Shown here: positions 13,284 to 35,826 of the stretch, one piece after another | How the letters are laid out: every line of letters begins with the position of its first letter | How positions within the stretch are numbered: position 1 is the first letter of the stretch | From: a virus | DNA length: 64,000 nt | Direction: 5' to 3' (one strand) | Virus record (IMG/VR): IMGVR_UViG_3300027792_000011 | The notes under the pieces: generated by a model | The model's database searches: none | Seen by the model: only the letters and a program-made list of their open reading frames with translations | What the model was told of the DNA's origin: nothing | Translations under genes and position numbers: made by a program

Positions 13284-13502
13284 ATGCCCTCTAGCAAAAA
13301 GCCATCACAGGTCAAGCATGAGAAGAGATCTCAGTTGGGAAACTCTCCCTCGGCTGCTGTGAGCGGGAACACTCCAACAGTTCAAGCTTCCTCTCCGATG
13401 GGATCAAACACGGTTCCATCTGCGTACAACACGGTCACGAAAGTTGGGCAGGTGAAGTATGCGGCCTGGGCAGATGAGTTTGAGAAGATCATAGGAAGGT
13501 AA
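13284..13502 (+). CDS. Small protein ending in AWADEFEKII motif
   Basis: C-terminal variant of the F-x-DE-L-x-KIA motif. Confidence 0.6.
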   Translation: MPSSKKPSQVKHEKRSQLGNSPSAAVSGNTPTVQASSPMGSNTVPSAYNTVTKVGQVKYAAWADEFEKIIGR

Positions 13503-13505
13503 CCA

Positions 13506-13973
13506 ATGCCCGCTTGGATACATGATCGAGCTATGAAGCTCAAGAAGCAGATGGAAGACACCTATCCACCAGAGAAGGCCAAGCAGGTTGCCTTCGCTGT
13601 CGCAACGCAAATGGCCCACAAGACCGGCAAGAGTCCAAAGACTTTTGGTACGTCAGAAGGTAGATCGGAAGCCAAGGCCAAGTTCGACAAGCCGAAGAGT
13701 GAGTACAAGAAGACTGCCTCCGCGATCATGTTCGACGGCTTTTCAGATGAGCTGGAGAAGATCGCAATCTCTTTTCGACTTCCATCTGCGATAAGGAACG
13801 TTCCAGCAGTTACCAAAAATCTACTCACCAATGCTAAGACCGGTCTTGGGGCAGCAAAGACTAGTCTTGGAACACTGCCACGTAGAGCGTATACAGCAGC
13901 TCATTCACCGCAAGTGCAGCACACTATGTACAATCTTGGTGATACTGCTCTACAGCTGGTAGCTCCACATTGA
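13506..13973 (+). CDS. Putative head-associated protein with FSDELEKIA motif
   Basis: KKTASAIMFDGFSDELEKIA in mid-protein. Confidence 0.65.
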   Translation: MPAWIHDRAMKLKKQMEDTYPPEKAKQVAFAVATQMAHKTGKSPKTFGTSEGRSEAKAKFDKPKSEYKKTASAIMFDGFSDELEKIAISFRLPSAIRNVPAVTKNLLTNAKTGLGAAKTSLGTLPRRAYTAAHSPQVQHTMYNLGDTALQLVAPH

Positions 13974-14010
13974 TTCTGGACAAGTATGATCAGCAAAGGA
14001 AGGTGACAGT

Positions 14011-14409
14011 ATGTATTGGCATGTTACGCTTAGAGGATTTTCTGATGAGTTGCAAAAAATAGCTGTAGCACAATGGCGTACTATTGCGCGTGCAGTACCT
14101 GGTGCGGCAGAGCGTATGGGTGCACATCTTAGTCCAGGAGGTGCACTGTCTATTGAGCGTGCTGTTCCACTCAAGCGTCCAGGTATGATTGATGAGGCAG
14201 CGTTTTTGAAGCGCCGCGCACTTCACCCTGATGCTGCTTCTGTTGTTAGAGAGGGGACAGGAGTGCTGGAAACTGGGGCTCGGGATTTCCCTTCACATAC
14301 ACACGGTACCCCAAGAGCACGTCAAGTACATGACTATCAATTCATGGGCCACCCACAAGAGTTTTCTGGGACAACTCCAACAACTCCTTGGTTTATGAGG
14401 CGCAAATAG
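14011..14409 (+). CDS. Putative head-associated protein with N-terminal FSDELQKIA leader
   Basis: MYWHVTLRGFSDELQKIA; RBS GGAAGGTG. Confidence 0.65.
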   Translation: MYWHVTLRGFSDELQKIAVAQWRTIARAVPGAAERMGAHLSPGGALSIERAVPLKRPGMIDEAAFLKRRALHPDAASVVREGTGVLETGARDFPSHTHGTPRARQVHDYQFMGHPQEFSGTTPTTPWFMRRK

Positions 14410-14460
14410 GGAAGGTAACAACCAGCAGCTCTCTTTGATGGCTCGAGTAGGTTGATGCAT

Positions 14461-14490
14461 AGCTAAGAAAATGCCGCAGAGGTTGCGGCA
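14461..14490 (-). terminator. Cassette terminator: hairpin + TTTTCTTAGCT
   Basis: TGCCGCA/TGCGGCA stem directly after the stop at 14495. Confidence 0.7.
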
Positions 14491-14494
14491 AGAA

Positions 14495-14956
14495 CTACTT
14501 GGGTGGGCACTCCAGATAGATTTTGATCTCACCATGCCCATCGGGCATGATGTACCAGTCGCAGAAGTCATGCTTGCCCCTGGTGAAGGTCTTCACCAAA
14601 CCAGGTTTGGCTCCATGAGCTGCTGCTTCGATCAAATCCATCAGAGCCTGTCCGTCCCCGATAGGAAGTCTCCTATTTCTAGGATTGTCCTCTTCGGTTG
14701 GGAACATCATTCGGTAGGAGACTTGGAGTACACGTCCGTGTTTCTGCACTTCAGCGATCTCACGGTGTGCACTCCATAGTCCACCAGGTGTGAGCTGGAA
14801 CTGATCTTGGTATAGCAGACTGATCTGCTTCATCAGATCATCCAACCAGGAAAAGTCGGCAGAGCCCATGATAGTGTCTAGTATGAGCCGAAACCTGCTG
14901 TTCGGACAGTACTGACACCACTCTCGAAACCGATCGTCACTCTTCTTGGTCCACAT
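14495..14956 (-). CDS. Hypothetical cassette protein
   Basis: 3' part of track ORF 14495..15154; start uncertain. Confidence 0.55.
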   Translation of the reverse strand: MWTKKSDDRFREWCQYCPNSRFRLILDTIMGSADFSWLDDLMKQISLLYQDQFQLTPGGLWSAHREIAEVQKHGRVLQVSYRMMFPTEEDNPRNRRLPIGDGQALMDLIEAAAHGAKPGLVKTFTRGKHDFCDWYIMPDGHGEIKIYLECPPK

Positions 14957-15119
14957 GCAGCTATCACGAGGAACCAGGTGAGTGTCACCAGATCTTATCC
15001 TGGCTTTCGGTTCCGATACGCTCTTTGGAGATCTATTGAGATCGCGAGGACAAGCAACCCAAAGACCCTTTTGATCCAGTACCCACTGGCTGAGTCCTTG
15101 GGATGCCTTCCTCGGTTGA

Positions 15120-15998
15120 TCAACTCCAGATGTCTTCTCCCTCGGCACTCTCATCCTCCTCTGACGAGTCCGAGAACCAATACTTCTCCAGGAGGTCTCT
15201 TGCCTTCTCGTCCTTCACGAGGGCAATAGCACATTCTGGGTGCTCGCCATCTCGGAGGTCTATGCCATCCTGCCATCCTGGTTTGCTGTCAAAGCCAGCC
15301 AGTTTGACGGTGTCGTTGGCAGCGCGCTTCAACAGCGCGATGGGGAGTCCTGTTGGACCCTTCCGGACTGGGGCCAAATTGAACCCCATTGCGCTTATGA
15401 TCTCACGCTGCTCTTTGGTGGTGTCACACCCGTCGGCGACACCCTTGATGAGAGTGTATGTCTGTTTGCCGACGGGATCGCTGGCGAAGAAGCATGGTTG
15501 CCACTCGCTCCAGTCTTTGCCATTCGGTGGTACCAGGCCAAACATGGCCCAGTTTCCTCGAGTGTTCAGAACCATCCCCACACCACATGTGTCGATGGCT
15601 GTGCTCCTCCCGGAGCGGCCAGTGATGGTCACCTTTGGTCCGCGAAGGTGGCCATTGTAGATCATAAGAAGATCAAGCCGTAGCTTGACCTTCACCCCGT
15701 CCACGATCTTCATCCATGAGACACCCTGGGTACGGGTCATCTCTTGGAACATCGAATCGGCCATTGCCACGTGTGCAGTCTTGACCATGGCGACTTTCGA
15801 TCCGAGCACGCCTCCCTCTACCTTTGCTCTCTTCAGGATTTCAGTAAGTCGTCTTCCCCCGTACAGTTTGAGAAGCCGGCGCGACTCACTCTCGGAGAAC
15901 CCCATGCTGATCGCTTTCGCGACCAGCTTTTCCTCTCGTGAGTCCTTTTCTTGCTCCTGCTCCTGCTGTACCACGTTCTCAGCTACTGCTGCTGCCAT
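15120..15998 (-). CDS. Hypothetical cassette protein
   Basis: 292 aa, RBS GGAGGAG, acidic C-terminus, TATAAG promoter upstream. Confidence 0.75.
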   Translation of the reverse strand: MAAAVAENVVQQEQEQEKDSREEKLVAKAISMGFSESESRRLLKLYGGRRLTEILKRAKVEGGVLGSKVAMVKTAHVAMADSMFQEMTRTQGVSWMKIVDGVKVKLRLDLLMIYNGHLRGPKVTITGRSGRSTAIDTCGVGMVLNTRGNWAMFGLVPPNGKDWSEWQPCFFASDPVGKQTYTLIKGVADGCDTTKEQREIISAMGFNLAPVRKGPTGLPIALLKRAANDTVKLAGFDSKPGWQDGIDLRDGEHPECAIALVKDEKARDLLEKYWFSDSSEEDESAEGEDIWS

Positions 15999-16057
15999 AA
16001 CCGATCTCCTCCATCTCCCTAGTCCATATCTAGGAAACTGATCACTGCCACATTTGT

Positions 16058-16086
16058 CTTATAGCGTTGGCACAGATCAATTTGTA
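16058..16086 (-). promoter_or_regulatory. Cassette-type promoter
   Basis: TACAAA-17-TATAAG. Confidence 0.55.
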
Positions 16087-16102
16087 GCGTATATTCGAGC
16101 AG

Positions 16103-17920
16103 ATGCAGTCAGAACAGATCAGCGATTACAAGGATTTTTACGTAGATGCCAAGCGAGCTATTGATACTGGAGTCTTCAACCAAGAGGTTGAGGACGAGAT
16201 CGATCGTATCATGGCCGAGCTCAATGAAGAGGATGAGGAGATAGCTGAGCTATTCGAGGATGAGGATCAGATACTCACGTCCAAGAGACAGATAGAAGTA
16301 CTCCCATCAGACTTCACAGAGTTTGCCATACGCATTCCGGTATCTGGTGATCTGGAGCCTTTCAGCTTCGATCACAGAAGGTACCTCAAGCCGATCTATG
16401 ATACACCAGCAAGAAGGACACTTCTGAAGTGCGCTCGTCAGACCGAGAAGTCGACATCACTTGGTAACAAGAGTCTTGCTTACTGTGGGATCAACTACGG
16501 CTTCAAGGTTCTCTATGTCAGTGCTACGGCAACGCAGGCACAGGTCTTCAGCGTTGATCGTATCAAGGAGCCATTGGACATCTCTCCAGAGATGAGCTTC
16601 CTGATCGATACCAAACTGAATCAGAACGTTCTATTCAAACAGTTCAAGAATCGATCCCAGATCAGGATCAGGTACGCATTCCTCAATGCAGACCGAACTC
16701 GTGGCATTCCAGCGGACATGATTCTGATCGATGAGATACAGGACATCTTCTTCAGCAACGTACCTGTCATAGAACAGTGCGCATCCCACTCACAGTGGAA
16801 GATCTACTGCTACTCTGGAACACCCAAGAGCCTAGACAACACGATCGAGGTGTACTGGTCCAACTACTCTACTCAGAACGAGTGGATCGTTCCATGTGAA
16901 CGGCATGGTGTTCCGAGCAAACCGAACACCTGGTTCTGGAACATTCTTGGGATCAAGAACATTGGCAGGAAAGGATTGATCTGTGCCAAGTGCGGTCAGC
17001 CTATTGATCCAATGCACCCTATGGCTAACTGGGCATCCAGGCAACCAGTTACGGAAGAGAATGCGCATAGGGTAACGTTCGAGGGCTACCGTATCTCACA
17101 GTTGATGGTCCCTTGGGTAAACTGGCAAGACGACATCATCATGGCGCTCGAGCGCTATGGCACAGCTAAGTTCCACAACGAGGTACTTGGTCTGTCATAC
17201 GATTCAGGTATTCGTCCGCTAACCAGAACACAAGTAAGATCATGCTGCAACAAGAACATCCGGCTTAGCTATGTCGTTGAGAATGCACAGAAGTGCTACG
17301 GTGGGGTATTCGTTGGCGTGGACTGGGGGACCGGAGAGGCTGATTCCTATTCTGTGATCGCATTGGGTGGGTATATGGGTGGGGAGTTCCAGATCTTCTT
17401 CGTACACAGATTCATTGGTGAAGATCTAGAACCACAACGACAGCTACAGATGATCTCGCAACTGCTAGTGTCGGTTCAGTTCAAGCTCATTGGTGCGGAC
17501 TACGGTGGTGGCTTTGATCGCAATGACTTCTTGCAGAGAAACTTTGGACCACTGCGTCTAGCCAAGTACCAGTATGCTGGATCACCTAAAGCGAAGGTGA
17601 AGTGGCAGCCCAAACTAGGCAGGTTCATCCTCCACCGTACTGAGGTCATGAGCGACATCTTCAACGCGATCAAGTACAAGAAGATAGCACTGCCCAACTG
17701 GGAAGACTTCTCATCTCCGTACGCAGACGACATGCTCAACATCTTCAGCGAGTACAATGATCAGCTAAATATGATCCAGTACAAACTGAGCCCTGGAAAG
17801 AGTGACGATACTTTCCATGCGATCTTGTACTGCTTCCTCGTCTCAATGCTTGCAAAGCCCAGACCCGACATCATCATCCCTCTCCATGCCGGCCACGTTG
17901 ATTTCCGTAGACCAGGATGA
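16103..17920 (+). CDS. terL: Terminase large subunit
   Basis: Walker A-like KCARQTEKST, Walker B ILIDEIQD, motif SGTP, nuclease GVDWG and C-terminal DDTFHA. Confidence 0.9.
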   Translation: MQSEQISDYKDFYVDAKRAIDTGVFNQEVEDEIDRIMAELNEEDEEIAELFEDEDQILTSKRQIEVLPSDFTEFAIRIPVSGDLEPFSFDHRRYLKPIYDTPARRTLLKCARQTEKSTSLGNKSLAYCGINYGFKVLYVSATATQAQVFSVDRIKEPLDISPEMSFLIDTKLNQNVLFKQFKNRSQIRIRYAFLNADRTRGIPADMILIDEIQDIFFSNVPVIEQCASHSQWKIYCYSGTPKSLDNTIEVYWSNYSTQNEWIVPCERHGVPSKPNTWFWNILGIKNIGRKGLICAKCGQPIDPMHPMANWASRQPVTEENAHRVTFEGYRISQLMVPWVNWQDDIIMALERYGTAKFHNEVLGLSYDSGIRPLTRTQVRSCCNKNIRLSYVVENAQKCYGGVFVGVDWGTGEADSYSVIALGGYMGGEFQIFFVHRFIGEDLEPQRQLQMISQLLVSVQFKLIGADYGGGFDRNDFLQRNFGPLRLAKYQYAGSPKAKVKWQPKLGRFILHRTEVMSDIFNAIKYKKIALPNWEDFSSPYADDMLNIFSEYNDQLNMIQYKLSPGKSDDTFHAILYCFLVSMLAKPRPDIIIPLHAGHVDFRRPG

Positions 17921-17970
17921 TCAGCTAAGGAAAGGAGCCGAGAGAGGTAGGATCCCGGTTGGGTTCTCGG

Positions 17971-18312
17971 CTAGAGATCGATGCAGATAGCACCGGCTTC
18001 GGCCTGCCTTATGAGAGGAAGTGCCCATCCGGAGATGTACTCTACGCAGATGTACTGAGCATCCAGGTGGCAATCGGCGGATATTACCTCTTCCGGCGTT
18101 TCGAGGTAGTAGGCCACATCCAGTTTTCCGTCGTGCATCACTCTGATCGTGAAGCACCCGTTCGCACCTCTACGTCCCAAGAGCTGACAACTCTTGGAAC
18201 GGATTGGGCGAAGACGCCACCCCCGCTTACAGGGGTCTGTCTCTGCGGTGTGCCCACTTCCGGCCCACATAAACGCCGGTATCGTCGTGTCTACCTTGAA
18301 CGTTTTCAGCAT
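17971..18312 (-). CDS. Hypothetical cassette protein
   Basis: AGAAAGGA RBS and own promoter; hairpin + TTAGCT downstream (17923). Confidence 0.75.
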   Translation of the reverse strand: MLKTFKVDTTIPAFMWAGSGHTAETDPCKRGWRLRPIRSKSCQLLGRRGANGCFTIRVMHDGKLDVAYYLETPEEVISADCHLDAQYICVEYISGWALPLIRQAEAGAICIDL

Positions 18313-18319
18313 AACTGCC

Positions 18320-18382
18320 TTCCTTTCTACTGATCTTATATACTGATCTAAGTGGGAATTTCTATGATCAGCTAAGGAAATT
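18320..18382 (-). repeat. Conserved cassette junction (terminator tail, AGCT, promoter AGAAAT-17-TATAAG, RBS)
   Basis: Near-identical to 61728-61790 (first 31 nt identical). Confidence 0.9.
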
Positions 18383-18397
18383 TGCCTAGAAGTTAGG

Positions 18398-18643
18398 CTA
18401 GGTGGGACTATTGTAAAACTTTTCCATTTCTTCGATTACGGCGAGTTCTTCTTGAAATGTCAGACAGTGTTTCAAACTACCATATAGTGCGTATCCTGGT
18501 CTGTATATCAATGCAACTTGTCTGCTGCCATGGGAGTTGTTGACTAGCAAGCTGGCGCCTCCGTCTATTTGCTTGAACTCAGGTCTCAATCCAAAGCCGC
18601 AGATTCTTGAGCACCTCTTCATGATTGTATGAAAGGGTGTCAT
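18398..18643 (-). CDS. Hypothetical cassette protein
   Basis: AGAAAGGA RBS; hairpin + TTAGCT downstream. Confidence 0.7.
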   Translation of the reverse strand: MTPFHTIMKRCSRICGFGLRPEFKQIDGGASLLVNNSHGSRQVALIYRPGYALYGSLKHCLTFQEELAVIEEMEKFYNSPT

Positions 18644-18656
18644 AGTACTTTCCTTT

Positions 18657-18767: not shown

Positions 18768-18787
18768 CGATTCTCCTTTCTACTGAT

Positions 18788-18816
18788 CTTATATACTAGA
18801 TCAGCTCTATATTTTA
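18788..18816 (-). promoter_or_regulatory. Cassette-type promoter
   Basis: TAAAAT-17-TATAAG. Confidence 0.75.
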
Positions 18817-20314: not shown

Positions 20315-21223
20315 ATGACGAGGGATCGACATATGATAGGAGCACAGGCAGCGCACTTCACGATGGCTGAAGGATCTCATCGTGAGGTACAGCCGGAGCG
20401 GCTCCAAATGCTTGGCAAGCGGGCTAGTGCCATGTTCGTCGAGCAGGGGATCCCGCTGACCGATGCTGTAGTTCGTGTTCTCTCAGAGGAAAGTGGTCTG
20501 AATCGCAATCATGTCCAACGTGTGACTGAATTTGCGAACAACTACGCCTTTGAGGGATTGTTCAACAAGGAAGCCAGTGATCATAGAGTCATTGACTTCG
20601 GAGAGCATGGACCAGCAGATACGGCAGAGGTTCTGAAGGAGCTCAATTCAGTGGGTCGAGAGCAGATCAAAACGGCTGCAAGGCAGCCTACGATCAGCCG
20701 GCGCTTTGTTCCAGGACAAGATAGCGCACAAGAGAGCTACGCTCTTACGAAGACCGCTGCCGCTGCACCAGCTTACCAGTATGTGGATCCGTATCGGGAG
20801 CTGGGAGAGCTGCGAGACGACGTGAAGCGAGCAAAAGAAGAAATGCTCGAGAAGGTCAGTCAGGCTGGTCTGGAGTACGAAGCAGCTTGCAGATCGCTGT
20901 ATGACCTGACCAAACAGGCGGTGCTGGGTGGATACTCTCCAGCAGATGTCACTGTTGCATTTCTGCAGACGGCCGTAGATCGGTCGCTGGTGAAGCTTGC
21001 TCTGAAAGAGATTGCACAGCGTATGGATCTGGATCAGATTCCGGCTGTGCCGATGACCAAGCAAGCTTCGGCTCGCCAGGTCAACCCAAAACACCCGCTC
21101 ATGGGGGCCTTCAGTGCCTTCACGAAGACGGCAGTAGACTACTTCGGCAAGATCAAAGCTGCTGAGGATCTCACGAAGCAGTACGGTGTTGTCGATCGAA
21201 AGCTGCGGGGTATGATCCAATGA
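20315..21223 (+). CDS. Putative head-associated protein (K-x-A motifs)
   Basis: NKEAS, IKTAA, TKTAAA, TKQASA; first gene of the head operon. Confidence 0.65.
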   Translation: MTRDRHMIGAQAAHFTMAEGSHREVQPERLQMLGKRASAMFVEQGIPLTDAVVRVLSEESGLNRNHVQRVTEFANNYAFEGLFNKEASDHRVIDFGEHGPADTAEVLKELNSVGREQIKTAARQPTISRRFVPGQDSAQESYALTKTAAAAPAYQYVDPYRELGELRDDVKRAKEEMLEKVSQAGLEYEAACRSLYDLTKQAVLGGYSPADVTVAFLQTAVDRSLVKLALKEIAQRMDLDQIPAVPMTKQASARQVNPKHPLMGAFSAFTKTAVDYFGKIKAAEDLTKQYGVVDRKLRGMIQ

Positions 21224-22049: not shown

Positions 22050-23984
22050 ATGATCATCAAACAGTGTCAGTTTTCGGGATGTGATAACCACGGTGTTCAT
22101 GTTCACCTAGTTCATCCTGGTTACGACAACGAGCAGCTAGTCAAAACAGCTGCCGCTTCTCCCCCGCAGCTTGAGATCATCCAACGACATTTGAAGAGTA
22201 TGAGCCGTGCTGACGGAGTGCTCTACACTCTAGTGAGCGCTCTCGGTGCAGGTGAATACTGGGGATCGAATAGCAACGCGGACTGGTTCGGTACAGATGC
22301 TCTTCTGCATGTTCCTCCCGACTGGGACTTGATGCCTGCCAATCAGCAGAGGTTGATGGGGCAGAGATGGCAGTGGGGCTACCCCACCTTCTACAATGCG
22401 TACGCGTATCAGCATCATGTGAACAAAGATCCAGCTCGAGCATTCGGCAACATCGAGTATGTCTTGTGGGACTCTCGGATGAAGAGAGTGCTCTTGATAG
22501 TTGGAGTAGATCGTCGCAAAGCGCAAGAGATAGGTGCCCAAGGTATTGTCGATCGAATTGAGAATGGGGAGTATCCAGATGTCTCCATGGGATGCAAAGT
22601 CCCATTCGACGTTTGTTCGATCTGTGGGGATATGGATTTCCTTCGTCCATTCTTGGGCAAGCCCGCTGACATTGTGCGCATGCACAAGCAGAAGCCGATT
22701 CGGGGAGTCAGCACAACAACAGAAGAGTATTGTCAGCACCTAAAGTTCGAGCTGAACAAGATCTACCCAGATGGGCAACGAGTGATGATGCTCAATGTCC
22801 ACCCGAGATTCTTCGATCTCAGTTTCGTATTCATTGGTGCCGACAAGACGAGCAAGATGATAGCTAAGTTGGCTGCTGGACAATGTCCAATAAGGTTGAG
22901 CGCACCGATCTGCAAACACGGATGTACACAATGTAAGAACGGTGCTGTTCCCTCTCCACATGTGCATGAGGTATGGTCGAAGGAGAAGGCCGCATCTGAT
23001 CACAGTTGGGAGATCATGACCGGAGCTCCAGTCGAAATGGATCATGACGATCGATTCTCTTCTACTCTCAAAGCTCCTTACGTAGCGAAGCCTCCAACCG
23101 TAACAGCTGAGATGGTCAAAGAAGCGTACGGGGATTATGGGCTCGAAGAGTTCGAAGAGGAACCTGGAGCTGCAGAACCGGTAGCCAACTACTTCAAGAA
23201 ACGTATTGGCGGAAGAATGATCAAGAAGTCGGAGATAGCCAAAAGGGTATCTTCGCACTTCGGAAGATCAATGCCTTCTATTGAACGTAGTGAGCAGGAC
23301 ATTCCACATCACATTCAGGATGAGATGGCTGAAGATCTTCCTCATAGCCTCAGCTCTGCTGGTGGTCTAGGGATCGTTGTGAAGCCGCGAGAGTTCCAGA
23401 GGATGATGTTGATCTCTTCTGGACACCGTAACTTGGCAGAAGATCTCGATGGGCAAGGAGCATCCTTCTGTCCTGGTGCTCCTATGGATCGTGGGTTCGG
23501 AATAGCCGACAGAGTCATTCCCAGGATCCTGGAAGCCTTGATGCCTTTGATTCACGATCGTAGTTCCTTCGGTCCTGCTCTCCACAAGAGGATTACAATC
23601 GTCATCCAGAAATCTCCACATGAGCACGAAGGGCACTCAATGCATCATGTAGGTGGAGATCTCATGGATAAAATCAGTAGTGCATATACGTCTTATAGAC
23701 GTGGACTGATCTATAAGACCGCTAGTCTCGTTTCCCAGGCTTTGAATGAGAAACCAGAGATCTTGAATCAACTGTACGGTGGTGATCTGGTTCGAGCGTT
23801 CGGTGGGGGTCTTGTCAAAGCTGGGGGCAATGTGATGGAATCTTTGATTGGAGGCATGCTACCTTTGATCTACTTGAATCAGGCGCACTTTGGTGGACCT
23901 GTATCCGAGTACGTTCAAGGACACCTCGATCTTGATGGGCTCATCAAAGCAGGTGGGCTCGCAACTTGCGGCGGGTTGGCGTAG
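22050..23984 (+). CDS. Prohead (maturation) protease with Zn-finger insert and long C-terminal extension
   Basis: QHHVNKD, VSMGCKVPFDVCSICG, CQH and FFDLSFVFIGAD pattern of HK97/herpes-type serine maturation proteases; upstream of the capsid gene. Confidence 0.7.
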   Translation: MIIKQCQFSGCDNHGVHVHLVHPGYDNEQLVKTAAASPPQLEIIQRHLKSMSRADGVLYTLVSALGAGEYWGSNSNADWFGTDALLHVPPDWDLMPANQQRLMGQRWQWGYPTFYNAYAYQHHVNKDPARAFGNIEYVLWDSRMKRVLLIVGVDRRKAQEIGAQGIVDRIENGEYPDVSMGCKVPFDVCSICGDMDFLRPFLGKPADIVRMHKQKPIRGVSTTTEEYCQHLKFELNKIYPDGQRVMMLNVHPRFFDLSFVFIGADKTSKMIAKLAAGQCPIRLSAPICKHGCTQCKNGAVPSPHVHEVWSKEKAASDHSWEIMTGAPVEMDHDDRFSSTLKAPYVAKPPTVTAEMVKEAYGDYGLEEFEEEPGAAEPVANYFKKRIGGRMIKKSEIAKRVSSHFGRSMPSIERSEQDIPHHIQDEMAEDLPHSLSSAGGLGIVVKPREFQRMMLISSGHRNLAEDLDGQGASFCPGAPMDRGFGIADRVIPRILEALMPLIHDRSSFGPALHKRITIVIQKSPHEHEGHSMHHVGGDLMDKISSAYTSYRRGLIYKTASLVSQALNEKPEILNQLYGGDLVRAFGGGLVKAGGNVMESLIGGMLPLIYLNQAHFGGPVSEYVQGHLDLDGLIKAGGLATCGGLA

Positions 23985-24056: not shown

Positions 24057-24914
24057 ATGAACGAGTTCCTGGCAGGCTACTATGGGACGGACGCTAACGG
24101 CGGCAATGGTGACGCGGACGCCCTCGAGAAGATGGCTCAACTCACTCTCCTGGTCAAAGAAGCTGAGGAGAATGACATCGACATCTCTTCGCTTTCGGAC
24201 GAAGAGGCCATGCAGCTTGCGGAAGAGCTGTACGGCGATGATGGCTCCGATGCTGGTGAGCAGACCGGAGAAGAGGACCTCGAGAAGGAGGCGCAAGCCA
24301 AGTTCGAGGAGGCCGACTTCCTGGGTCGAGTGATGGCCCATTCCATGTGGCAAGAGCTCGACAGCATCCAGAAAGAAGCTGGTGCGGTTGGAGAAGCTGC
24401 CGGAAAGGCATGGAAGTGGATGAGGGCCGCTCCCGGAAAAGCTCACAAGGCGACTCTTGGCCGCCTCGGAGAGGCAGCCGCTGAAGCAGCCGAGAAGGGC
24501 ACTGCTGGAAGGATCGCTGCGCAGCCGGGCCGTATGAGGAAGCAATACGGTGTCGAGAAGGCCCGAAAGATGCGCAAGGGCGAGTTCACCGAATCAGAAG
24601 CAGCCAAGATCATGAGGCGTGGCCGACAGGCCAACATCGCTACGCAAGCCGGTGCTGCTACTCTCGGAACAGCAGCACTCGCCGGTGGAGGCGTAGCCGC
24701 ACACAAGGCTCTCAAGAAGAAAGGCTCCGCTCTCAACTCCTTGATCGAGCAACGAGCCATCGAACATCTCGCCGCAGCCGGCTACGTTGATCAACAGGGC
24801 AATGTCTACGCTGCTGTCGAGAAAACAGCGGCCGACAATGACTTCAACATGATGGTCGACAAGGCCGCCCTCGAGCTCCTCGAGCAGAACGGCTACCCGG
24901 TTCAGTGGCGGTAG
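24057..24914 (+). CDS. Putative scaffold/inner head protein
   Basis: Acidic N-terminus; EKMA, KEA and EKTAA motifs; basic Gly/Ala module. Confidence 0.6.
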   Translation: MNEFLAGYYGTDANGGNGDADALEKMAQLTLLVKEAEENDIDISSLSDEEAMQLAEELYGDDGSDAGEQTGEEDLEKEAQAKFEEADFLGRVMAHSMWQELDSIQKEAGAVGEAAGKAWKWMRAAPGKAHKATLGRLGEAAAEAAEKGTAGRIAAQPGRMRKQYGVEKARKMRKGEFTESEAAKIMRRGRQANIATQAGAATLGTAALAGGGVAAHKALKKKGSALNSLIEQRAIEHLAAAGYVDQQGNVYAAVEKTAADNDFNMMVDKAALELLEQNGYPVQWR

Positions 24915-24930: not shown

Positions 24931-25212
24931 ATGGAGCTGACCATGTTGCATGCCTTGGTAGATGAGATGACGAAGATCTGTGCAGTCTCGTCACCATCTA
25001 TCAAGGCTCCACCTACTCCTGGTGGGGTGAACGGCAATATGAGCGCTAAGCCACAAGGACCAGTGCCCATAGGCAAGATCACCGGAAAAGCACTTGGTGG
25101 CACCAATCTGATGAAGACCAACTACACTACTGCAAACACGAGAGCGCAGGCACCAGACATCGCTCTGACCTCTGAACAGAAGGCCCTTACGCCTCCGGTG
25201 GTCAGATCGTAG
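24931..25212 (+). CDS. Small protein with ALVDEMTKIC leader variant
   Basis: Leader resembles F-x-DE-M-x-KLA. Confidence 0.55.
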   Translation: MELTMLHALVDEMTKICAVSSPSIKAPPTPGGVNGNMSAKPQGPVPIGKITGKALGGTNLMKTNYTTANTRAQAPDIALTSEQKALTPPVVRS

Positions 25213-27586: not shown

Positions 27587-28717
27587 ATGACAACGAGAGC
27601 TCAAGTCCTGAACGACCTGTTCGTCCAGAACCTCGATAGCTACGAAGGCAAGGAGAAGGTCGCACAAGCTGGTGGTACCTTCATCCGAGATCGTCTTCGT
27701 GAAGTCGCGTTCTCCAGGCAGGTCATCCCGCCCGAGAACGTCACCAAAGCCGACTGCCAGCGCAGCACGCGGCACGACACCTTGGTCAAGATCATCGACG
27801 TGGAACCCCAGAGCAAAGCGATGGCGATCACATTCCGTGGTCAGCCAAATGCTCGCTTCGTTCGAGGTTCTCGTGCGGAGATCCCCTTCTTCACCATTTC
27901 GTCAGAGAAGTTCGAGAAGGTGGAGCAGGAGCTGCTTGCCTACGAGATGCCGATCACTCGCATCATCGAAGACAACAGCGTGAAGGACATCCAAGAGATC
28001 GAAGACCGAGAGTTCTTGTTGCACATCGAAGCGGCTGTCCAGGCCATGCAGGCGGACGCAAACGGTGTTGCTGCTGCTCCGGCTCTCAACAACGCTGCCA
28101 TCAATGGCGCCACTCCTCCGAAAGAGTTCTCAGTCCGCAAGGGCGAGCTCTGTCGGCAGGTTGGTGTGGCTGACAACTCGTACATCTGGCCGCTTCAGAG
28201 ACCTGACCTGGTCAATATGCACAAGCTGCTGGATGGGAACCGCTTGAGGGCTGAGAAGATCCTCATGACGGAATACGACTTCGACGACCTCAACCAGTGG
28301 ACCGTTGAGGACTTCGGCTCGAAGCTCGAAGGTGAGACGGCTGTAGACGGTTACAAGTACTCCACGCTGCTCGGTCGTGCGTTCGTCCGAACGATCAAAA
28401 CCGACATTCTGCGTCCGGGGAACTTGTACGTCTTCACGTCTCCAGAGTTCTTGGGCAAGTTCTACGTCCTCAACAACACGAAGTTCTACATCGACAAGAT
28501 CGCGAATCTCATCACGTGGCAATCGTGGGAAGACATCGCAATGTCGATCGTGAACATTGCTTCGGTTCGCAAGATGGAGCTCTACTCCGGTGATGCGACG
28601 GCGCACAATACGGATTCGATCCGTACTGACGTCACGCCGAAGGACGAGGCCGATCTCGGAGCCGTGAACAACCGAGTCGATGCCGGCTTGGTGTTCCCAC
28701 AGGTGAAGGTCTACTAG
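27587..28717 (+). CDS. Major capsid protein (HK97 fold, probable)
   Basis: 376 aa; strong RBS and C/G-ending codon bias; IRDRLREVAFSRQVIPP and KDIQEIEDREFL segments; protease-scaffold-decoration-capsid order; terminator after. Confidence 0.8.
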   Translation: MTTRAQVLNDLFVQNLDSYEGKEKVAQAGGTFIRDRLREVAFSRQVIPPENVTKADCQRSTRHDTLVKIIDVEPQSKAMAITFRGQPNARFVRGSRAEIPFFTISSEKFEKVEQELLAYEMPITRIIEDNSVKDIQEIEDREFLLHIEAAVQAMQADANGVAAAPALNNAAINGATPPKEFSVRKGELCRQVGVADNSYIWPLQRPDLVNMHKLLDGNRLRAEKILMTEYDFDDLNQWTVEDFGSKLEGETAVDGYKYSTLLGRAFVRTIKTDILRPGNLYVFTSPEFLGKFYVLNNTKFYIDKIANLITWQSWEDIAMSIVNIASVRKMELYSGDATAHNTDSIRTDVTPKDEADLGAVNNRVDAGLVFPQVKVY

Positions 28718-30133: not shown

Positions 30134-30604
30134 ATGGCAACTTGGAGAATCTGGAGATTCCGTACAGATCAGGACTTGTACGATACGCTGAACGGTGCGG
30201 TCGGCAGCGAAGTTGATGCCGAGAAGGGTCTTGATCTAGATGGCAAAACGCTCATCATCAATGTCGGTGGCGCCGGTGACAGAACTGTCAATTTCGCTCC
30301 GGCGTTGTCCAGGAAATGGACCCCAGAGGAAGTAGTTGCCAAGATCAGTGCAGCACATGCCGACTTGACTGGCATTCCGAAATTGGTGCGAGAACCGGGA
30401 ACAAGAGCTGGAATGAACCCCACGTACCTTCGTCTCGTGAAGGATACTGGAGCCGTCATTACAGTTAGATCGACTGGAACTGCCAATGCTCTATTCGGTT
30501 ATTCTATTACAGCTGACACGGTTGGGGTGCCCTATACCTTCAACGACGTGAAGTCTGTCTATATGAACGATAACAAGACCTGGTACGCAGTGACGTACAA
30601 GTAG
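30134..30604 (+). CDS. Stand-alone copy of the tail-sheath insertion domain
   Basis: LDGKTLIINVGG..TVNF..TPEEVVAKISAA resembles repeats in 36674..39916. Confidence 0.55.
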   Translation: MATWRIWRFRTDQDLYDTLNGAVGSEVDAEKGLDLDGKTLIINVGGAGDRTVNFAPALSRKWTPEEVVAKISAAHADLTGIPKLVREPGTRAGMNPTYLRLVKDTGAVITVRSTGTANALFGYSITADTVGVPYTFNDVKSVYMNDNKTWYAVTYK

Positions 30605-30614
30605 GAGCAAGATC

Positions 30615-32471
30615 ATGTCTCACACATTTGACAGTATGCTCAAAGAAGCTACCGCGCTGCCGTGGGCAATGGGCGCACGTCTCATGGTCGAGCTCCGCAG
30701 CACGGTCAGAATTCCTGAAGAGCCGAGGATGACCAAGTCTGCAGCTGCTGGTCTTGTGAAGATAGCACGCATTTGCAAGATGGCTCAGACTCCTGAAGAG
30801 GCGCAGCAAACCGTTCAGCAACAAGCCATGGTCGATCCAAATGTCGTACAGGCTTTGGACTACCAGCAGGCGGAGAGTGAACGGCAGGCTATGATGGCCA
30901 AGATCCAAGAGCTGCAGATGGCTACTGAGGCCGCGCAGGCTCAGGCTCAGATGGCCGATCAGCAAGCTCAGGCTGCTACGCAACAGCAGGAGCAGTTGAT
31001 GATGCAGGCACAGCAGGCCAAGCAAGAGCAGGTCAATGCTGTGATGGAGTCGATGCAGGCCAAGGATCAGACTCTCCAGGTCCAGGTATCTTCTCAGCAG
31101 CATCGTCAACAAGTTGCTCAGTTTGCCCAGCAGATGGCTGATCAACTCAAGCAACTAGCTACTACGAGTCCTGAAGAGCAACAGATGCAGGAGCAGGCCG
31201 CTGCTGAACAAGAACAGCAACAGCAGGCGGCGATGCAGCAACAGCAGCAGGGACAAGAGCAGCCAGTAAAGAAGAAGACGAAGCAACAGCAGCAAGAAGC
31301 CCAGAACTCCCAGGAGAACGCACAGAAGCAAACAGCACAAGCTGAGCAGGCAACTGCACAAGATCAGCAAGAGATGCAGGGAATGCAGGCTCAAGCCCAG
31401 CAACCACAACAGCCCCAAGTACCTCCAATGGGAGGTCAACCGAAGATGGGATCAGCGAAGCTGCAGAAGATCGCTGCTAGGTTCAAGTTCGCTCGTATTC
31501 GGAAACAGGCTCAGTTCTCTGGCACCAATGAGGGGTACGGAGAGAGCCAAGGAGGATCGGGACAGCAGGGGATGTTCTCCTACTCCTCGATGGGGAAGAG
31601 AGAATCTCTTCCAGCAAAGCAGTTTGCGGCTTTGAGATCAAAGGTGAAGAAGCGAGAAGGTACAGGAAAGAGTAAGACTGGATCAGCAGAAGCTCAGGTT
31701 ATTGGTATCGAGCTTGGCGTAGATTGGTCCAGGGCAAACTTCACACCCGCTGATCTCGCTAAAGGTATGAAGATCGAAGAGGAGCACGGATCGAAAGACT
31801 CTCGTGAGACTGCCAAAGTCGCTATCGATCACCTTCGAGAACGTGGAGACTACTACGATCTTCTAGCGAAGAAGGTTGAAGAAGCTCCCAAGACGGATGG
31901 CGGGGAATCAGCAGCCAAGGAGAAGCAAGAGCAACAGCAGGAAAAGCAAGGATCATTTGATCATAGAAGAGCCATGATGATCGCTCAACGAGTCAGGTTG
32001 ATCAAAGAAGGTCAGCTAAAAAAAGTGTGTAGGGACTCTGCTGATATTGCGGAGTCCCACCAACTTCAACTCGTGAAGAGTGCTGCGAAGATGAAACTTC
32101 CAGTAGTAGAGAGTGGTGCGCACAGACTCGGTAGGGCTGGTGCCTACGCAGCTCTTGGAGCAGCTCTTGGAGCTGCCTACGAGAAGTCGCGGCTACGGGC
32201 TCATGAGAAGAAGGTTGGACTTGACAAACCAACTCAAAAAGAGATTGATCTTGCTGGCAAGCTAGTGGGTGCCAAGGAGTTGGCCAAGAGGGAGCCAACT
32301 TACGCAAACAAGCTCCGTATTCATAACATCAAGTATAAGATCGACATGGAGAGGTTGGGGCGGGAACATCCGAATAGAGCAGCTTTGAGAGGAGCTGGTT
32401 TGGGTGCGCTTGGTGGTTTCGCGCTAGGGCCATTCGTTCACAGAGTAGCTGGAAAGATCATCAAGAGATAG
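30615..32471 (+). CDS. Q-rich K-x-A polyprotein with DUF5661-like domain
   Basis: Poly-Q coiled coil; LAKGMKIEEEHG..TAKVAIDHLRERGDYYDLL; Gly-zipper C-terminus. Confidence 0.65.
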   Translation: MSHTFDSMLKEATALPWAMGARLMVELRSTVRIPEEPRMTKSAAAGLVKIARICKMAQTPEEAQQTVQQQAMVDPNVVQALDYQQAESERQAMMAKIQELQMATEAAQAQAQMADQQAQAATQQQEQLMMQAQQAKQEQVNAVMESMQAKDQTLQVQVSSQQHRQQVAQFAQQMADQLKQLATTSPEEQQMQEQAAAEQEQQQQAAMQQQQQGQEQPVKKKTKQQQQEAQNSQENAQKQTAQAEQATAQDQQEMQGMQAQAQQPQQPQVPPMGGQPKMGSAKLQKIAARFKFARIRKQAQFSGTNEGYGESQGGSGQQGMFSYSSMGKRESLPAKQFAALRSKVKKREGTGKSKTGSAEAQVIGIELGVDWSRANFTPADLAKGMKIEEEHGSKDSRETAKVAIDHLRERGDYYDLLAKKVEEAPKTDGGESAAKEKQEQQQEKQGSFDHRRAMMIAQRVRLIKEGQLKKVCRDSADIAESHQLQLVKSAAKMKLPVVESGAHRLGRAGAYAALGAALGAAYEKSRLRAHEKKVGLDKPTQKEIDLAGKLVGAKELAKREPTYANKLRIHNIKYKIDMERLGREHPNRAALRGAGLGALGGFALGPFVHRVAGKIIKR

Positions 32472-32481
32472 GGGATTGAAC

Positions 32482-33939
32482 ATGCTAGATATGTTGCAGA
32501 AGCAGGCATCACAGGTCAAAACAGCAGCAGACCAATTCAGAGATCTGATGCACAATCTAGACAAGCTAGCATTCAAACCTGATCCATTCCGTAGGATGGA
32601 AGGTATGGATCCCCTGCTAGCTGTCCGTGAGTACGATTCTCCGGTATACGTGCGGCATAGGACAACTCCAGGTGGAGTTGACGAGCTGCTCTCCGAACCA
32701 CCGAAGAAGACAGTAGCCGAGACCAATCGTCTCACGAGTGAAGCACAGGAACCTCCTCAACCGTCAGAGGATGGAAACGACAGTAGATCGGTTGCGAAAG
32801 ACAACAAGTCGCTTGGAACGGTTGGCTATACTTGGGAGCAGAACAAGAAACCGGAGACCGTTCCAGATCTTGCTTCCATGAAAGTTCCAGGAACTGGTGG
32901 GACTGCTGCGCCCCAACCCAGTATACCGAAATCAGCAAGTAGATCTCGTATACAGAATGTGTTTGATCAAGATCTGATGGATCTAGTAAAGATGGGACTT
33001 GCTGGTCCAGCTCCTGTGATGGCCGGAAGTCCGACAATGTCACCAGCTATGAAAAATAAGCCGGTGATCGCAACTACTCCTACTCCTGACAAAGGCGCTC
33101 AAGCACCAGCAAAGAAGAAACTACCAGGTTGGGTACTTCCAGCTGGAATAGCTGCTGGTGCCTTGGGGGTAGTAGGTCTTGGCGCCCTTGCTGGTAGATC
33201 AGCTAGAAAGTCCTTTGCTAGAGAGTTCGGTGGAGGCGGTGGAGGTCGTGCAGCTGCTGAGCACTATACATGGAACATTGGCGGTAAGGCTGGCAAGGGA
33301 TCATGGGAGGACTACACCAAAGCCCGTCAGGCTCATCAGGCTGAGCGAGATACCTACTGGGCTGGGCAAAAGGCGAAAGCCGATGCCGATTTTGCTGCGT
33401 CAAGAGAGGCTCATAGAAAAGCCTATGAGGAAGGACGAGCTGCGCACCAGGCGAAAGAAAAAGCTAGGAGTGAACAGAAAACCAGTTGGGAAGACAAATG
33501 GGAGGATTTCAATAAGAGGTGGGGAAGAGGCGGATCAGAGTGGGGAGAAAGGACTCACTCCGGAAGAGCTGGAGGAGGTCAAGCTGGGTGGGGAAGTGGG
33601 GGAGCAGCTGTACCACACGAGGCGGATAGAGTCTGGGAAGAGACTAGAAAAGCTACGCAAGAAGCTGCAAACGAAGCCGCGAAAAGAGGTGAAGCCGCCA
33701 ATCGTGACATGCCAACTAGAGAAGAAATGGCTGAAGCATTTCGTTTTTATGGACTTGATCTGAAAACCCATAAGAGAGCAGATGTCATCAAGAAGCACAA
33801 AGAGATCGTAAAAAAGTATCACACAGACAAAGCCGGCGGAGGAAGCAGAGAAGAAGTGGCTAAGGCTAATACCATGTTTGAGAGACTGAAGAAGATCAGT
33901 TCTCTCAAACTTGTATACGATCTGGGAATGGTTCGCTAG
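32482..33939 (+). CDS. K-x-A polyprotein with TM segment and C-terminal J-domain-like region
   Basis: EAFRFYGL..VIKKHKEIVKKYHTDK..EEVAKANTMFERLK. Confidence 0.6.
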   Translation: MLDMLQKQASQVKTAADQFRDLMHNLDKLAFKPDPFRRMEGMDPLLAVREYDSPVYVRHRTTPGGVDELLSEPPKKTVAETNRLTSEAQEPPQPSEDGNDSRSVAKDNKSLGTVGYTWEQNKKPETVPDLASMKVPGTGGTAAPQPSIPKSASRSRIQNVFDQDLMDLVKMGLAGPAPVMAGSPTMSPAMKNKPVIATTPTPDKGAQAPAKKKLPGWVLPAGIAAGALGVVGLGALAGRSARKSFAREFGGGGGGRAAAEHYTWNIGGKAGKGSWEDYTKARQAHQAERDTYWAGQKAKADADFAASREAHRKAYEEGRAAHQAKEKARSEQKTSWEDKWEDFNKRWGRGGSEWGERTHSGRAGGGQAGWGSGGAAVPHEADRVWEETRKATQEAANEAAKRGEAANRDMPTREEMAEAFRFYGLDLKTHKRADVIKKHKEIVKKYHTDKAGGGSREEVAKANTMFERLKKISSLKLVYDLGMVR

Positions 33940-34823
33940 TGCTCAACGTTGTCAACGTTCAGGTAAAGTCACTCGAACTGGATCACCTCGATGTGTACTG
34001 GGAGATCTCAGACTCATCGGAGGATGCTTGGGACTACACCTTCACCGTTGAGCGCAGTGAGTCTGCTATGGGTCCGTTTGATCAGGCAAGCGAGCCATTC
34101 TCCGACAAGTACTACTTCCGAGATTCCATCGTGAACCTCTACAGCAGGTGGAGGCAGCTCTGGTACAGGATCAAGGTCACCAGTAAGCTAACCAGTGAGT
34201 TCGTCTATAGTGCGTCAGCTACTCAAGAACCAAGACCGTCTCTTGATGCCATTGAAGTACGTAGGCTCGAGCTCATTGCGTTTAGAGAGCACATCGGACG
34301 GCTAGTGTGGATCTTTCCAGTACGTACCTTTGGGCAGCGATGCCCAGACTGCTACGACAAGAGAACTGGCAATCGTCGTAGATCACAGTGTCCAACCTGT
34401 TTCAGTACTACATACGTTCGTGGGTATCTGGATCCTATCGCGACGTATCTGCAAATCGATCCAAGTCCTAAGCATGTTGAGATGCTGCAGGTGGCTAAGA
34501 CTGAGCAGTCGAACACTACGGGAAGGACACCCTACTTCCCGCCACTGAAGCCGAAAGATATAATCGTAGAAGCTGAGAATAGAAGGTGGAGGATTGAGAG
34601 GGTAAGTACTACGCAGCGTTTGAGGGCGGTCCTGCACCATGAGGTGGTGCTGCATGAGATCCCAAGAGCGGACATCGAATATTCGATTCCGATCAACATA
34701 GATGATCTCAGAAGATTGGAGCCCAGTCCGCAGCGTGAGTTCACGAACCCTCACAACCTTGAGAGCTTGGATGGAGCCGAGTTCATCAACAACCTTCTAA
34801 CAGGACACGGTTTTGGAACATGA
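33939..34823 (+). CDS. Probable neck/head-closure protein (Fn3-like N-terminus, Zn ribbon)
   Basis: RCPDCYD..CPTCFSTTYVRGY; position between head and tail genes. Confidence 0.5.
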   Translation: MLNVVNVQVKSLELDHLDVYWEISDSSEDAWDYTFTVERSESAMGPFDQASEPFSDKYYFRDSIVNLYSRWRQLWYRIKVTSKLTSEFVYSASATQEPRPSLDAIEVRRLELIAFREHIGRLVWIFPVRTFGQRCPDCYDKRTGNRRRSQCPTCFSTTYVRGYLDPIATYLQIDPSPKHVEMLQVAKTEQSNTTGRTPYFPPLKPKDIIVEAENRRWRIERVSTTQRLRAVLHHEVVLHEIPRADIEYSIPINIDDLRRLEPSPQREFTNPHNLESLDGAEFINNLLTGHGFGT

Positions 34824-35413
34824 TCAATTTTGCATCATTTAGTGACGAGCTGCAGAAGATTGCTGCTGAGCCTATTGTGGCTGATCCGATCAATAAAGAA
34901 GAACTAGTACGTCACTATCAGCAACTCGGCCGTATAGGTGGTGGAGTGGGTGGTGCTGCTCTTGGTGGTGGCGGGCTTGGACTACTCGGATCTAGAATTG
35001 CTGGAATACCTGGTGCCGTAGTTGGTGGCACAGTTGGTGCACTTGGTGGCGGTTACCTTGGTGGGAAGTACGTTGGTAGAGCTGCCAAAGGAATAGCTAT
35101 GGGAACGCCTGAAGATGTATTCCAGGCACGTGCAAATCTTGATCATGCGGAGGACTTGTACGAACGTGGAGAGTTGGGAGATAAGGATCGTCTGCGAGCC
35201 ACATTGATCGCGTCCAACGCCGCCAGAAAGGCTCACGGAAGAAAACCTCTAGAGTCTGACTTTCTATCTCGTGATCGACCAGGATCTTACGTAGTGGAAG
35301 GTAGAGATGTCGCGGTCAATCCTTATGGTATTTCTTACGCAGATCCATATGGATATAGACCGGGACCGGCACAAGTGACTTCTAGATATCGAAGAGTTCC
35401 TATGAGCGAGTAA
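34820..35413 (+). CDS. FSDELQKIA-leader protein with Gly zipper
   Basis: MINFASFSDELQKIAA followed by GGGVGGAALGGGGLGLLG. Confidence 0.65.
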   Translation: MINFASFSDELQKIAAEPIVADPINKEELVRHYQQLGRIGGGVGGAALGGGGLGLLGSRIAGIPGAVVGGTVGALGGGYLGGKYVGRAAKGIAMGTPEDVFQARANLDHAEDLYERGELGDKDRLRATLIASNAARKAHGRKPLESDFLSRDRPGSYVVEGRDVAVNPYGISYADPYGYRPGPAQVTSRYRRVPMSE

Positions 35414-35826
35414 TGTACGATCTTGTATCCATAGCTGCCTTCCGCGATGAGATGACCAAACTGGCGCAGGAGTCTGCTCAGCGCATTGATCCGCAGGCTA
35501 TTGAGCTGCAACAAGCTCTAGATCAGGAGCAGGGCCGGAGAACGATGAACCGGCAAGCTCTAGGGCAGTTCTTGAAGGACACTGCTATCGTTGCTGGTGG
35601 TGTTGGGGCTGGATATGGGCTAGGTCGGTTGTCAGTGGATGCTCTGACAAAGCTACGAGGGCCAGTATCAAGTCCATGGCGTCAAATGCTGTATGCAACA
35701 TTTCCGGTAGTGGCAGGTGGTGCTGCTCTAGCTGTTCGTGGGAAGATGCGAGAAGAGCAAGATCGAAGGCTGGAAGAAGCATATCAGAGGGGTGTTCAGT
35801 CCGCAGGTAGTAGGGTGGGCAGGTGA
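35413..35826 (+). CDS. FRDEMTKLA-leader protein with two hydrophobic segments
   Basis: MYDLVSIAAFRDEMTKLA. Confidence 0.65.
   Translation: MYDLVSIAAFRDEMTKLAQESAQRIDPQAIELQQALDQEQGRRTMNRQALGQFLKDTAIVAGGVGAGYGLGRLSVDALTKLRGPVSSPWRQMLYATFPVVAGGAALAVRGKMREEQDRRLEEAYQRGVQSAGSRVGR

Follow-up and report, generated by a model that had tools for sequence, protein, structure and literature searches.

Why do proteins with no other likeness to one another carry the same short peptide in the genome of a large phage? This question is raised by a 64,000-nucleotide stretch of viral DNA (IMG/VR record IMGVR_UViG_3300027792_000011; the window), in which the original prediction had listed eight peptides of the type F-x-D-E-[LM]-x-K-[IL]-A and taken them for a tag that loads cargo into the capsid. 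The window corresponds to G000:C1:15796-79795, a portion of a 174-kb phage contig, C1 (51% G+C), and the remaining contigs of this 3.8-Mb metagenome-assembled genome have a median G+C content of about 60%. We find that the tag forms a portable, phage-specific leader at the N-terminus of proteins and that its conservation is one of peptide sequence. As to its function, we lean with modest confidence towards a leader resembling the capsid-targeting sequence (CTS) of phage T4, which would dock varied cargo into the prohead and would be removed by the prohead protease after a hydrophobic-x-K-x-A site.

All eight listed peptides were found in open reading frames (ORFs) of the plus strand. The coordinates given for them are indeed the points at which these ORFs begin, but they mark gene starts rather than the motifs themselves, which are located at nucleotides (nt) 13467 (WADEFEKII, C-terminal), 13740, 14038, 24955, 34838 and 35440 as well as 8113 (FFDEMSALEKQG) and 24345 (MWQELDSIQKEA). 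In a six-frame translation of the window, DE[LMF].K[IL] matched exactly six times, always at a reported site, and about 0.002 matches to the strict pattern would be expected by chance (our own rough estimate from residue frequencies, not the output of a tool). As the original prediction had noted, the right-hand genes lack the motif, with no copy to the right of 35.5 kb in the window. Extending the search to six frames of the whole 3.8-Mb assembly gave six matches to F.DE[LM].K[IL]A, all six on contig C1, including two strict copies beyond the window at C1:165877(+) and C1:89599(-). The tag copies use different synonymous codons, indicating selection on the peptide and not a repeat of DNA. A DNA-level repeat or regulatory element was rejected on the same grounds.

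The tag is shared by hundreds of related phages in IMG/VR, a large group of uncultured myophages of about 130-210 kb with members in wetland and sediment samples. At least 303 relatives are present in IMG/VR, several of them complete (178-193 kb), and the cultured kin are all distant, namely Salmonella phage Arash, whose capsid protein shares 28% identity, together with Vibrio phages D69, D181 and D148. A relaxed pattern yielded 93 matches in 80 capsid-gene loci of relatives, every one on the coding strand. Each of five complete relatives has 3-10 matches to the back-translated pattern and none to a reversed control pattern. Scanning IMG/VR for the motif only, with a DNA pattern of fixed codons, returned at least 118 stretches, mostly on contigs of 60-210 kb, and 19 of 19 large tag-bearing contigs tested, which had been picked by the motif alone, encode the protease of this lineage described below. 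A leader context was seen for 106 of the 130 IMG/VR matches listed versus 4 of 110 for the same DNA pattern in bacterial and archaeal genomes; across 596 Gb of the latter, the number of matches was close to chance expectation by our own estimate. A chance origin of the motif was rejected on the window and assembly counts, the reversed control and this bacterial and archaeal comparison. One 28-residue open frame, ending in FKFADELRKIAEYIEINTTEDTAVAG, is nearly unchanged in five IMG/VR loci (L131, L148, L202, L223 and L226); it fits the DNA pattern and is without leader context.

Alignment of 105 non-redundant lineage copies gave the logo [A/S/G]-F-[F/V/S/Y..]-D-E-L-[E/Q/T]-K-I-[A/G/S], with information collapsing right after the last position. 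An in-frame ATG occurs 4-13 codons before the Asp in 84 of these 105 copies, and among the IMG/VR matches listed, 118 of 130 further copies have a start codon 3-14 residues before the Phe. The same spacing of 3-14 residues applies to four of the six core copies in the window, to both extra copies on C1 and to about 80-90% of 235 non-redundant copies of relatives. Moreover, 67% of sites extended by F-x-D-E are N-terminal compared with 24% of generic K-x-A sites (p = 1e-23). The tag is thus an N-terminal leader of 12-22 residues, consisting of Met, 3-13 residues and [A/S/G]-F-x-D-E-L-x-K-I-[A/G/S]. The original prediction had allowed for N-terminal, internal or C-terminal placement, and copies of each kind do exist; free placement, however, was not borne out. 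'Internal' copies either follow another hydrophobic-x-K-x-A site (YKKTA↓SAIMFDGFSDELEKIA↓; here and below, arrows mark presumed cuts) or are N-terminal in an ortholog, as for a protein with a GNAT domain. The sole C-terminal copy, that of the ORF at 13284-13502, has a counterpart in relative G001, whose ortholog ends alike in FADELKQIIRR before the stop codon.

The amphipathic character attributed to the tag is supported at the level of prediction. Its F, L and I lie at i, i+4 and i+7 and hence on one face of a helix, as read directly from the sequence. In an AlphaFold2 model of the C92 amidase family, in which a linker of variable length follows the tag, a free helix comprising residues 3-17 ends exactly on the final Ala; this helix is predicted with a pLDDT of 52-60 and the domain after it with a pLDDT above 90.

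Grouped by BLAST, the sequences that follow the tag form at least 40 mutually unrelated sets and include unrelated folds and Pfam families, confirming that the motif is attached to otherwise dissimilar proteins. Most tagged bodies are small and of low complexity, or resemble Gly-zipper or transmembrane (TM) segments. The enzymes recognised by Pfam comprise SNF2 helicases, MazG with a P-loop domain, glyoxalase with GNAT, InPase (3.6e-41) and amidases of the Peptidase_C92/NlpC-P60 type. Bodies are also swapped between close relatives, in line with the predicted exchange of cargo: one N-domain with its tag is joined to three different downstream bodies in this genome, G001 and G005. Adjacent tagged genes do resemble tandem duplicates (34820/35413 and 13506/14011), and in phage SPN3US paralogs with identical N-termini are on record (PMC5694885), which would suit a single, fast-diverging paralogous family recognisable only by its N-terminus. 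Against common descent of the tagged proteins stand the domains from unrelated Pfam families or clans behind the tag, the different cargos in close relatives and an alignment of the tag with an internal polyprotein junction in this genome (see below), so that this explanation is largely refuted and retains hardly any credibility.

Within the window, three tagged ORFs follow one another closely on the plus strand. The first encodes 72 amino acids (13284-13502) and ends in the tag-like WADEFEKIIGR (nt 13467-13493) directly before its stop codon, without the final Ala. It shares one reading frame with the second, of 155 amino acids (13506-13973), from which it is separated by a single TAA; the latter product has a conserved N-domain ending in YKKTA, the tag FSDELEKIA (nt 13740-13766) and 68 residues of variable cargo. 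The third (14011-14409, 132 amino acids) begins with the tag FSDELQKIA, its Phe being residue 10 (nt 14038-14064). Two further tagged plus-strand ORFs overlap at 35413: one of 197 amino acids (34820-35413) has an N-terminal FSDELQKIA (nt 34838-34864) ahead of a Gly-zipper or TM-like body, and one of 137 amino acids (35413-35826) has FRDEMTKLA (nt 35440-35466) followed by Gly/Ala-rich hydrophobic segments. A small protein of 93 amino acids (24931-25212, plus strand) carries the variant LVDEMTKIC at its N-terminus (nt 24955-24981); its gene is syntenic, lying 2.3-2.7 kb before the capsid gene, and almost all relatives have the tag on it. A tblastn search with the tagged 197-residue protein against 50,697 phage genomes gave no match, and almost no annotation was obtained when the tagged proteins of the window and the multi-site proteins introduced below were scanned with PHROGs and Pfam.

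The two degenerate copies are supported by orthology. At 7684-8451 (plus strand), a 255-residue protein consists of a GNAT acetyltransferase domain (residues 12-105), the sequence MAKTA, the degenerate tag FFDEMSALEKQG...LSKLA (nt 8113-8148) and a Gly-zipper tail. A related-locus search with this GNAT protein found no relatives; its ortholog was located afterwards by a genome search. In the closest relative (L237:1507-1899), the tagged Gly-zipper tail stands alone as a 131-residue open frame without GNAT, directly following the RNA polymerase gene, and its N-terminal FFDELGQIEKAG aligns with FFDEMSALEKQG. The GNAT domain is fused in frame upstream of the tagged Gly-zipper part in this genome only. 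The second degenerate tag, MWQELDSIQKEA (nt 24345-24380), is internal to an acidic, scaffold-like protein of 285 amino acids (24057-24914, plus strand), which contains six hydrophobic-x-K-x-A sites, or seven if G or S is accepted last. It aligns with YVDE[LM]xKI[AG] of the relatives' scaffold-like proteins, in all of which the tag is likewise internal.

How the tag might work is suggested by its end. In an unbiased comparison of about 64,000 gapped three-residue patterns, L.K.A ranked first in the proteins of the virion block (32 observed, 6.1 expected, z 10.4), the next few in the ranking including E-K-x-A, K-x-A-S, D-x-L-x-K and K-x-A-A. In its general form, hydrophobic-x-K-x-A, the motif occurs 71 times in the virion block where 20.0 are expected (3.5-fold). 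Elsewhere in the phage it occurs 47 times (41.1 expected), and long ORFs on the remaining contigs have 0.89 times the expected number. The enrichment is specific to K over R and to A over S. Glu motifs of the T4 and phiKZ types, (L/I or A/S/G)-x-E, were not enriched in virion-block proteins (113 observed, 109.6 expected, and 195 observed, 203.3 expected), and together with the enrichment of K-x-A this implies a different specificity. The last five residues of the tag (L-x-K-I-A) are the strong form of the same motif. The original suggestion that the tag ends in a cleavage site thus gains weight, since the tag terminates in a motif with the behaviour of a head-protease site. A T4-like Glu site within the tag (x-D-E↓L) was rejected: residues other than L/I or A/S/G occur at P3, and the Glu motifs are unenriched.

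Similar endings are found on proteins of the head itself. The major capsid protein (27587-28717, plus strand) has a 26-residue leader ending in EGKEKVA↓QAGG, and this ending is kept across the lineage as EGKEKIA↓EY (EGKEK[I/V]A); the equivalent in the capsid proteins of Arash and D69 is GL[VT]KEA↓GAAM. Several virion-block proteins contain 5-8 sites, as expected of scaffold or core proteins cut into small pieces. One of 691 amino acids (9926-12001, plus strand) has eight hydrophobic-x-K-x-A sites (11 with G or S last) and is presumed to be a head-internal protein that is cut several times, and one of 302 amino acids (20315-21223, plus strand) has seven (eight with G or S), its orthologs in Arash and D69 having nine each. 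The head modules of both cultured phages show the same enrichment (42 observed, 10.5 expected in Arash; 43 observed, 11.7 expected in D69); the long tag was not found in either. In Arash, the proteins with such sites include gp220, gp222, gp223 and gp225. The RNA polymerase beta-like proteins of Arash (L081, 130093) and D69 (L235, 143288) both start with MPK[S/K]A↓S, a K-x-A site at the extreme N-terminus, from which a propeptide would be just five residues long.

A candidate for the enzyme acting on these sites is encoded in the interval that separates the portal/RNA-polymerase block from the scaffold and capsid genes. The presumed prohead protease (22050-23984, plus strand) has 644 amino acids, of which the N-terminal ~275 (protease domain, 22050-22880) are predicted to adopt the T4 gp21/assemblin fold. 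An AlphaFold2 model of this part, built from 30 orthologs (pLDDT 77), had T4 gp21 (5JBL) as its best Foldseek match (probability 0.99). VIA-align to 5JBL gave a Z of 9.5, with 139 of 164 residues aligned at an rmsd of 3.1, followed by herpesvirus assemblins with Z of 5.9-4.4. Invariant among the 30 orthologs are H122, H123, S179 (in VSMG), D187 and H212. In addition, K32 and A34 (LVKTA↓A) are invariant amid an otherwise variable N-terminus, and a near-invariant AK[L/I]A (AKLA↓A here) closes the protease domain; both look as self-processing sites would. Homologs occur in Arash (gp222), D69, Bacillus phage G (gp19) and some actinophages, and a phmmer search of the 644-residue protein against PDB sequences returned nothing useful. 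Phage G gp19 has been named a head maturation protease, with no cleavage rule given (PMC12484599). In four orthologs (L073:2827-6846, L050:2613-6680, L026:435-3560 and G010:C1:113249-117391; ORFs of 1041-1679 amino acids), insertions of 400-1000 residues split the gp21-like domain near residues 180-228. These insertions look like inteins adjoining the presumed catalytic Ser.

A link to the virion is provided by the tagged SNF2 helicase of relative L137 (L137:766-2928), which is 38% identical (3e-94) to Arash gp217, the alignment beginning right after the tag. Arash gp217 was detected in purified virions with 38 unique peptides and 1148 spectra, an abundance similar to that of the capsid protein (1333 spectra) and the RNA polymerase beta' subunit (1210) (PMC10585845). 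The Arash capsid protein was covered to 86.6%, which is compatible with the loss of 27 residues and proves nothing (PMC10585845). In the present genome, the helicase is a module (about residues 356-819) of a 1,560-residue polyprotein encoded outside the window (G000:C1:132178-136860), and this module is 49% identical to a helicase that is encoded separately, with an N-terminal tag, in a relative. Upstream of it, the polyprotein has the junction ITDLEKEA↓A, which aligns with the tag.

Taken together, these data are consistent with the following course of events. The gp21-fold prohead protease would cut after the Ala of hydrophobic-x-K-x-A, and the F-x-D-E part would turn the leader into a docking helix by which cargo enters the prohead as it assembles; the helix may bind the scaffold or core, the interior of the shell or the long C-terminal extension of the protease itself. 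The protease would then clip off the leader and set the cargo free in the head for delivery with the DNA; a helicase, nucleotide hydrolases, acetyltransferases, amidases and small Gly-zipper membrane-active proteins might reach the host in this way. More narrowly, the leader could be a high-affinity protease substrate or propeptide and nothing else, which holds back the activity of toxic or membrane-active cargo or labels such cargo for processing, entry into the prohead being secured by other parts of the protein or by partners such as RNA polymerase. Such a role would suit a tag whose core is itself a K-x-A site, and many of the cargos are Gly-zipper or TM-like or potentially harmful enzymes. 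The Arash helicase ortholog, packaged without a tag, would fit as well. We nevertheless propose targeting, on indirect grounds: prohead proteases act inside proheads and the leader is the only element common to dozens of unrelated proteins, that is, to at least 40 unrelated cargos. Furthermore, internal K-x-A sites are without F-x-D-E, which is specific to N-terminal leaders, pointing to a second function beyond a minimal cleavage site. We regard a mere propeptide as rather unlikely.

Several observations weigh against a leader that docks cargo in the prohead and is cleaved there. The tag is known from the sequences of uncultured phages alone, from which we infer both cleavage and packaging. 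Arash packages its helicase ortholog without the tag, indicating that the tag is not the sole route into the particle. All characterised gp21-type proteases cut after Glu (PMC5694885), and Ala at P1 would thus be unprecedented in the family. The Pfam models S77 (PF03420, E <= 1) and S78 did not detect the protease when run against the whole assembly, so that its assignment relies on the predicted fold and the conserved His and Ser residues; it is placed by fold only, as a very divergent relative of the gp21 family. Tagged genes were moreover expected to be concentrated among virion genes: this holds in the present genome, six of whose eight strong copies fall within the virion block, but complete relatives have about half of their tagged genes at a distance of more than 45 kb from the capsid gene. 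One tagged copy here, C1:165850, sits among genes for TM proteins. Finally, some multi-site proteins are encoded among the tail genes, and one just after the sheath gene (40707-41870) has five hydrophobic-x-K-x-A sites within its first 130 residues; an ESM Atlas look-up of this poorly modelled protein gave matches of at most 0.80.

The K-x-A-rich proteins encoded among tail genes are also what one would expect if the tag docked onto a different assembly partner, such as the interior of the tail or baseplate, the portal, a dedicated chaperone or the ejection apparatus, whether or not it is then removed. The sheath gene follows shortly after the tagged genes at 34820 and 35413, and the C-terminal tag-like end of the 13284 protein, which lacks the Ala, is kept in G001. 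However, the interval from the protease gene to the capsid gene contains the best-conserved tagged gene and that of a tagged scaffold-like protein, and the capsid protein and the protease bear the same K-x-A ending, which makes another docking partner improbable. A role in membrane targeting, or a tie to lysis or secretion, could be read from the C1:165850 copy with its flanking TM-protein genes, from the Gly-zipper segments in many cargos and from the tagged 92-residue gene C1:89375-89653(-), which directly precedes G000:C1:88664-89365(-), a gene whose product combines a TM segment at its N-terminus with a matrixin-like (Peptidase_M10) zinc-peptidase motif. The leader, however, is acidic and amphipathic, with neither a basic n-region nor a hydrophobic core; it heads cytoplasmic-type enzymes (SNF2 helicase, MazG) and has the same ending as the capsid and scaffold sites. 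We consider this possibility very improbable.

The window further encodes a single-chain, multisubunit-type RNA polymerase (1520-7696), the large terminase (16103-17920) and the tail sheath (36674-39916). Two proteins with similar N-termini are encoded at G000:C1:12195-13088(+) and C1:91923-93674(-); one of the pair matches tail-fiber and head-decoration PHROGs, and the other matches a tail-sheath PHROG (9e-87), besides the main sheath gene in the window. When the regions upstream of tagged and virion genes were searched for a late-promoter word in common, only GTTATAAG came up, a word that belongs to non-virion genes at 79-122 kb. It has ten copies on the contig (G000:C1 79.9-122.5 kb; window 64135 onward, mostly outside), most of them 10-80 nt upstream of small non-virion genes and none before tagged or virion genes. 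GTTATAAG is a candidate early or middle promoter element, and this result carries no information on the timing of tagged-gene expression.

If the leader does load cargo into proheads, it would allow virion-delivered effectors to be listed from sequence in hundreds of uncultured large phages, whereas such early-acting proteins are otherwise found only by virion proteomics, and the SNF2 helicase, MazG, InPase, GNAT and C92 amidase proteins would be candidates for host takeover or counter-defence. It would also mean that head proteases of the gp21/assemblin fold can have a specificity for Ala at P1 and Lys at P3, resembling herpesvirus assemblin more than T4. The cultured phages Arash and Vibrio phage D69 already permit a test of the wider K-x-A code, and foreign proteins might be packaged into phage heads in laboratory systems with the help of a short, defined loading tag and its matching protease. 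Somewhat more tentatively, at a little short of even confidence, we suggest that this nine-residue label reveals from sequence the proteins that the lineage packages and injects, that its protease has switched from Glu at P1 to Lys-x-Ala and that recombination swaps the cargo behind the label, which would amount to a natural modular protein-delivery system.

The principle of a CTS removed by a prohead protease is established in T4 (PMC5694885). A full-text literature search for the tag strings returned no paper, and we found none describing the tag sequence, the proposed protease rule, the breadth of cargo or the lineage. Among phages, the head and ejection proteins of phiKZ, 201phi2-1 and SPN3US have propeptides that are cut by gp175/gp245 at (A/S/G)-x-E (PMC5694885). 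As proposed for the present lineage, these large myophages package a multisubunit RNA polymerase and many ejection proteins and have many cleaved head proteins. They also have a self-processing protease and paralogs that share identical N-termini and are otherwise diverged. Their propeptides, however, are mostly longer than 100 residues, have no common short tag and are cleaved after Glu, whereas here one nine-residue consensus is found on dozens of proteins.

Short portable peptides that dock inside an HK97-fold shell are known from encapsulin cargo and, as a C-terminal helix-turn-helix, from the P22 scaffold. These peptides are mostly C-terminal and uncleaved, with unrelated motifs, in contrast to the N-terminal tag with its protease-type end. 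The tag accordingly does not fit the encapsulin type of uncleaved, usually C-terminal docking peptide, the sole C-terminal copy (13284) being atypical. The Dar anti-restriction proteins of phage P1 require N-terminal sequences for incorporation into the head, but they are not known to have a short consensus tag or a lineage-wide tag on enzymes. The capsid and scaffold proteins of Staphylococcus phage 80alpha and ribosomal protein L27 share a short N-terminal cleavage motif that is removed by Prp; in contrast to the system described here, Prp is a host cysteine protease, and again no lineage-wide tag on enzymes is known.

Herpesvirus assemblin is closer in the chemistry of its sites. Its maturational and release sites follow (V/L/I)-x-A↓S, with Ala at P1 and a small P1' residue as here, and the enzyme belongs to the same fold superfamily. 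Assemblin is fused to a scaffold-like C-terminal part and released from it at such a site, comparable to AKLA↓A at the end of the protease domain here. It differs in serving eukaryotic viruses with sites that are not known to act as cargo tags, and the sites described here have a fixed Lys two residues before the Ala and a hydrophobic residue a further two back.

The nearest parallel is the T4 CTS on IPI, IPII, IPIII and Alt, which is removed by the prohead protease gp21. As proposed here, it is an N-terminal leader of 10-20 residues on unrelated head-internal proteins that ends in the consensus site of the head protease. Both systems have a protease of the gp21 fold (predicted here, Z 9.5) and enzymes among the cargo, and the T4 ip and alt genes, like the cargo genes here, are partly scattered in the genome. 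The leaders themselves (MKTYQEFIAE in T4, xxAFxDELxKIA here) have no sequence similarity, and T4 cuts after Glu, whereas the cut here would presumably follow Ala with Lys at P3. In contrast to T4 gp21, the protease of this lineage has 644 residues with a long C-terminal extension and is missed by Pfam S77. Compared with T4, many more types of cargo are visible in this lineage, where they are known from sequence data alone.

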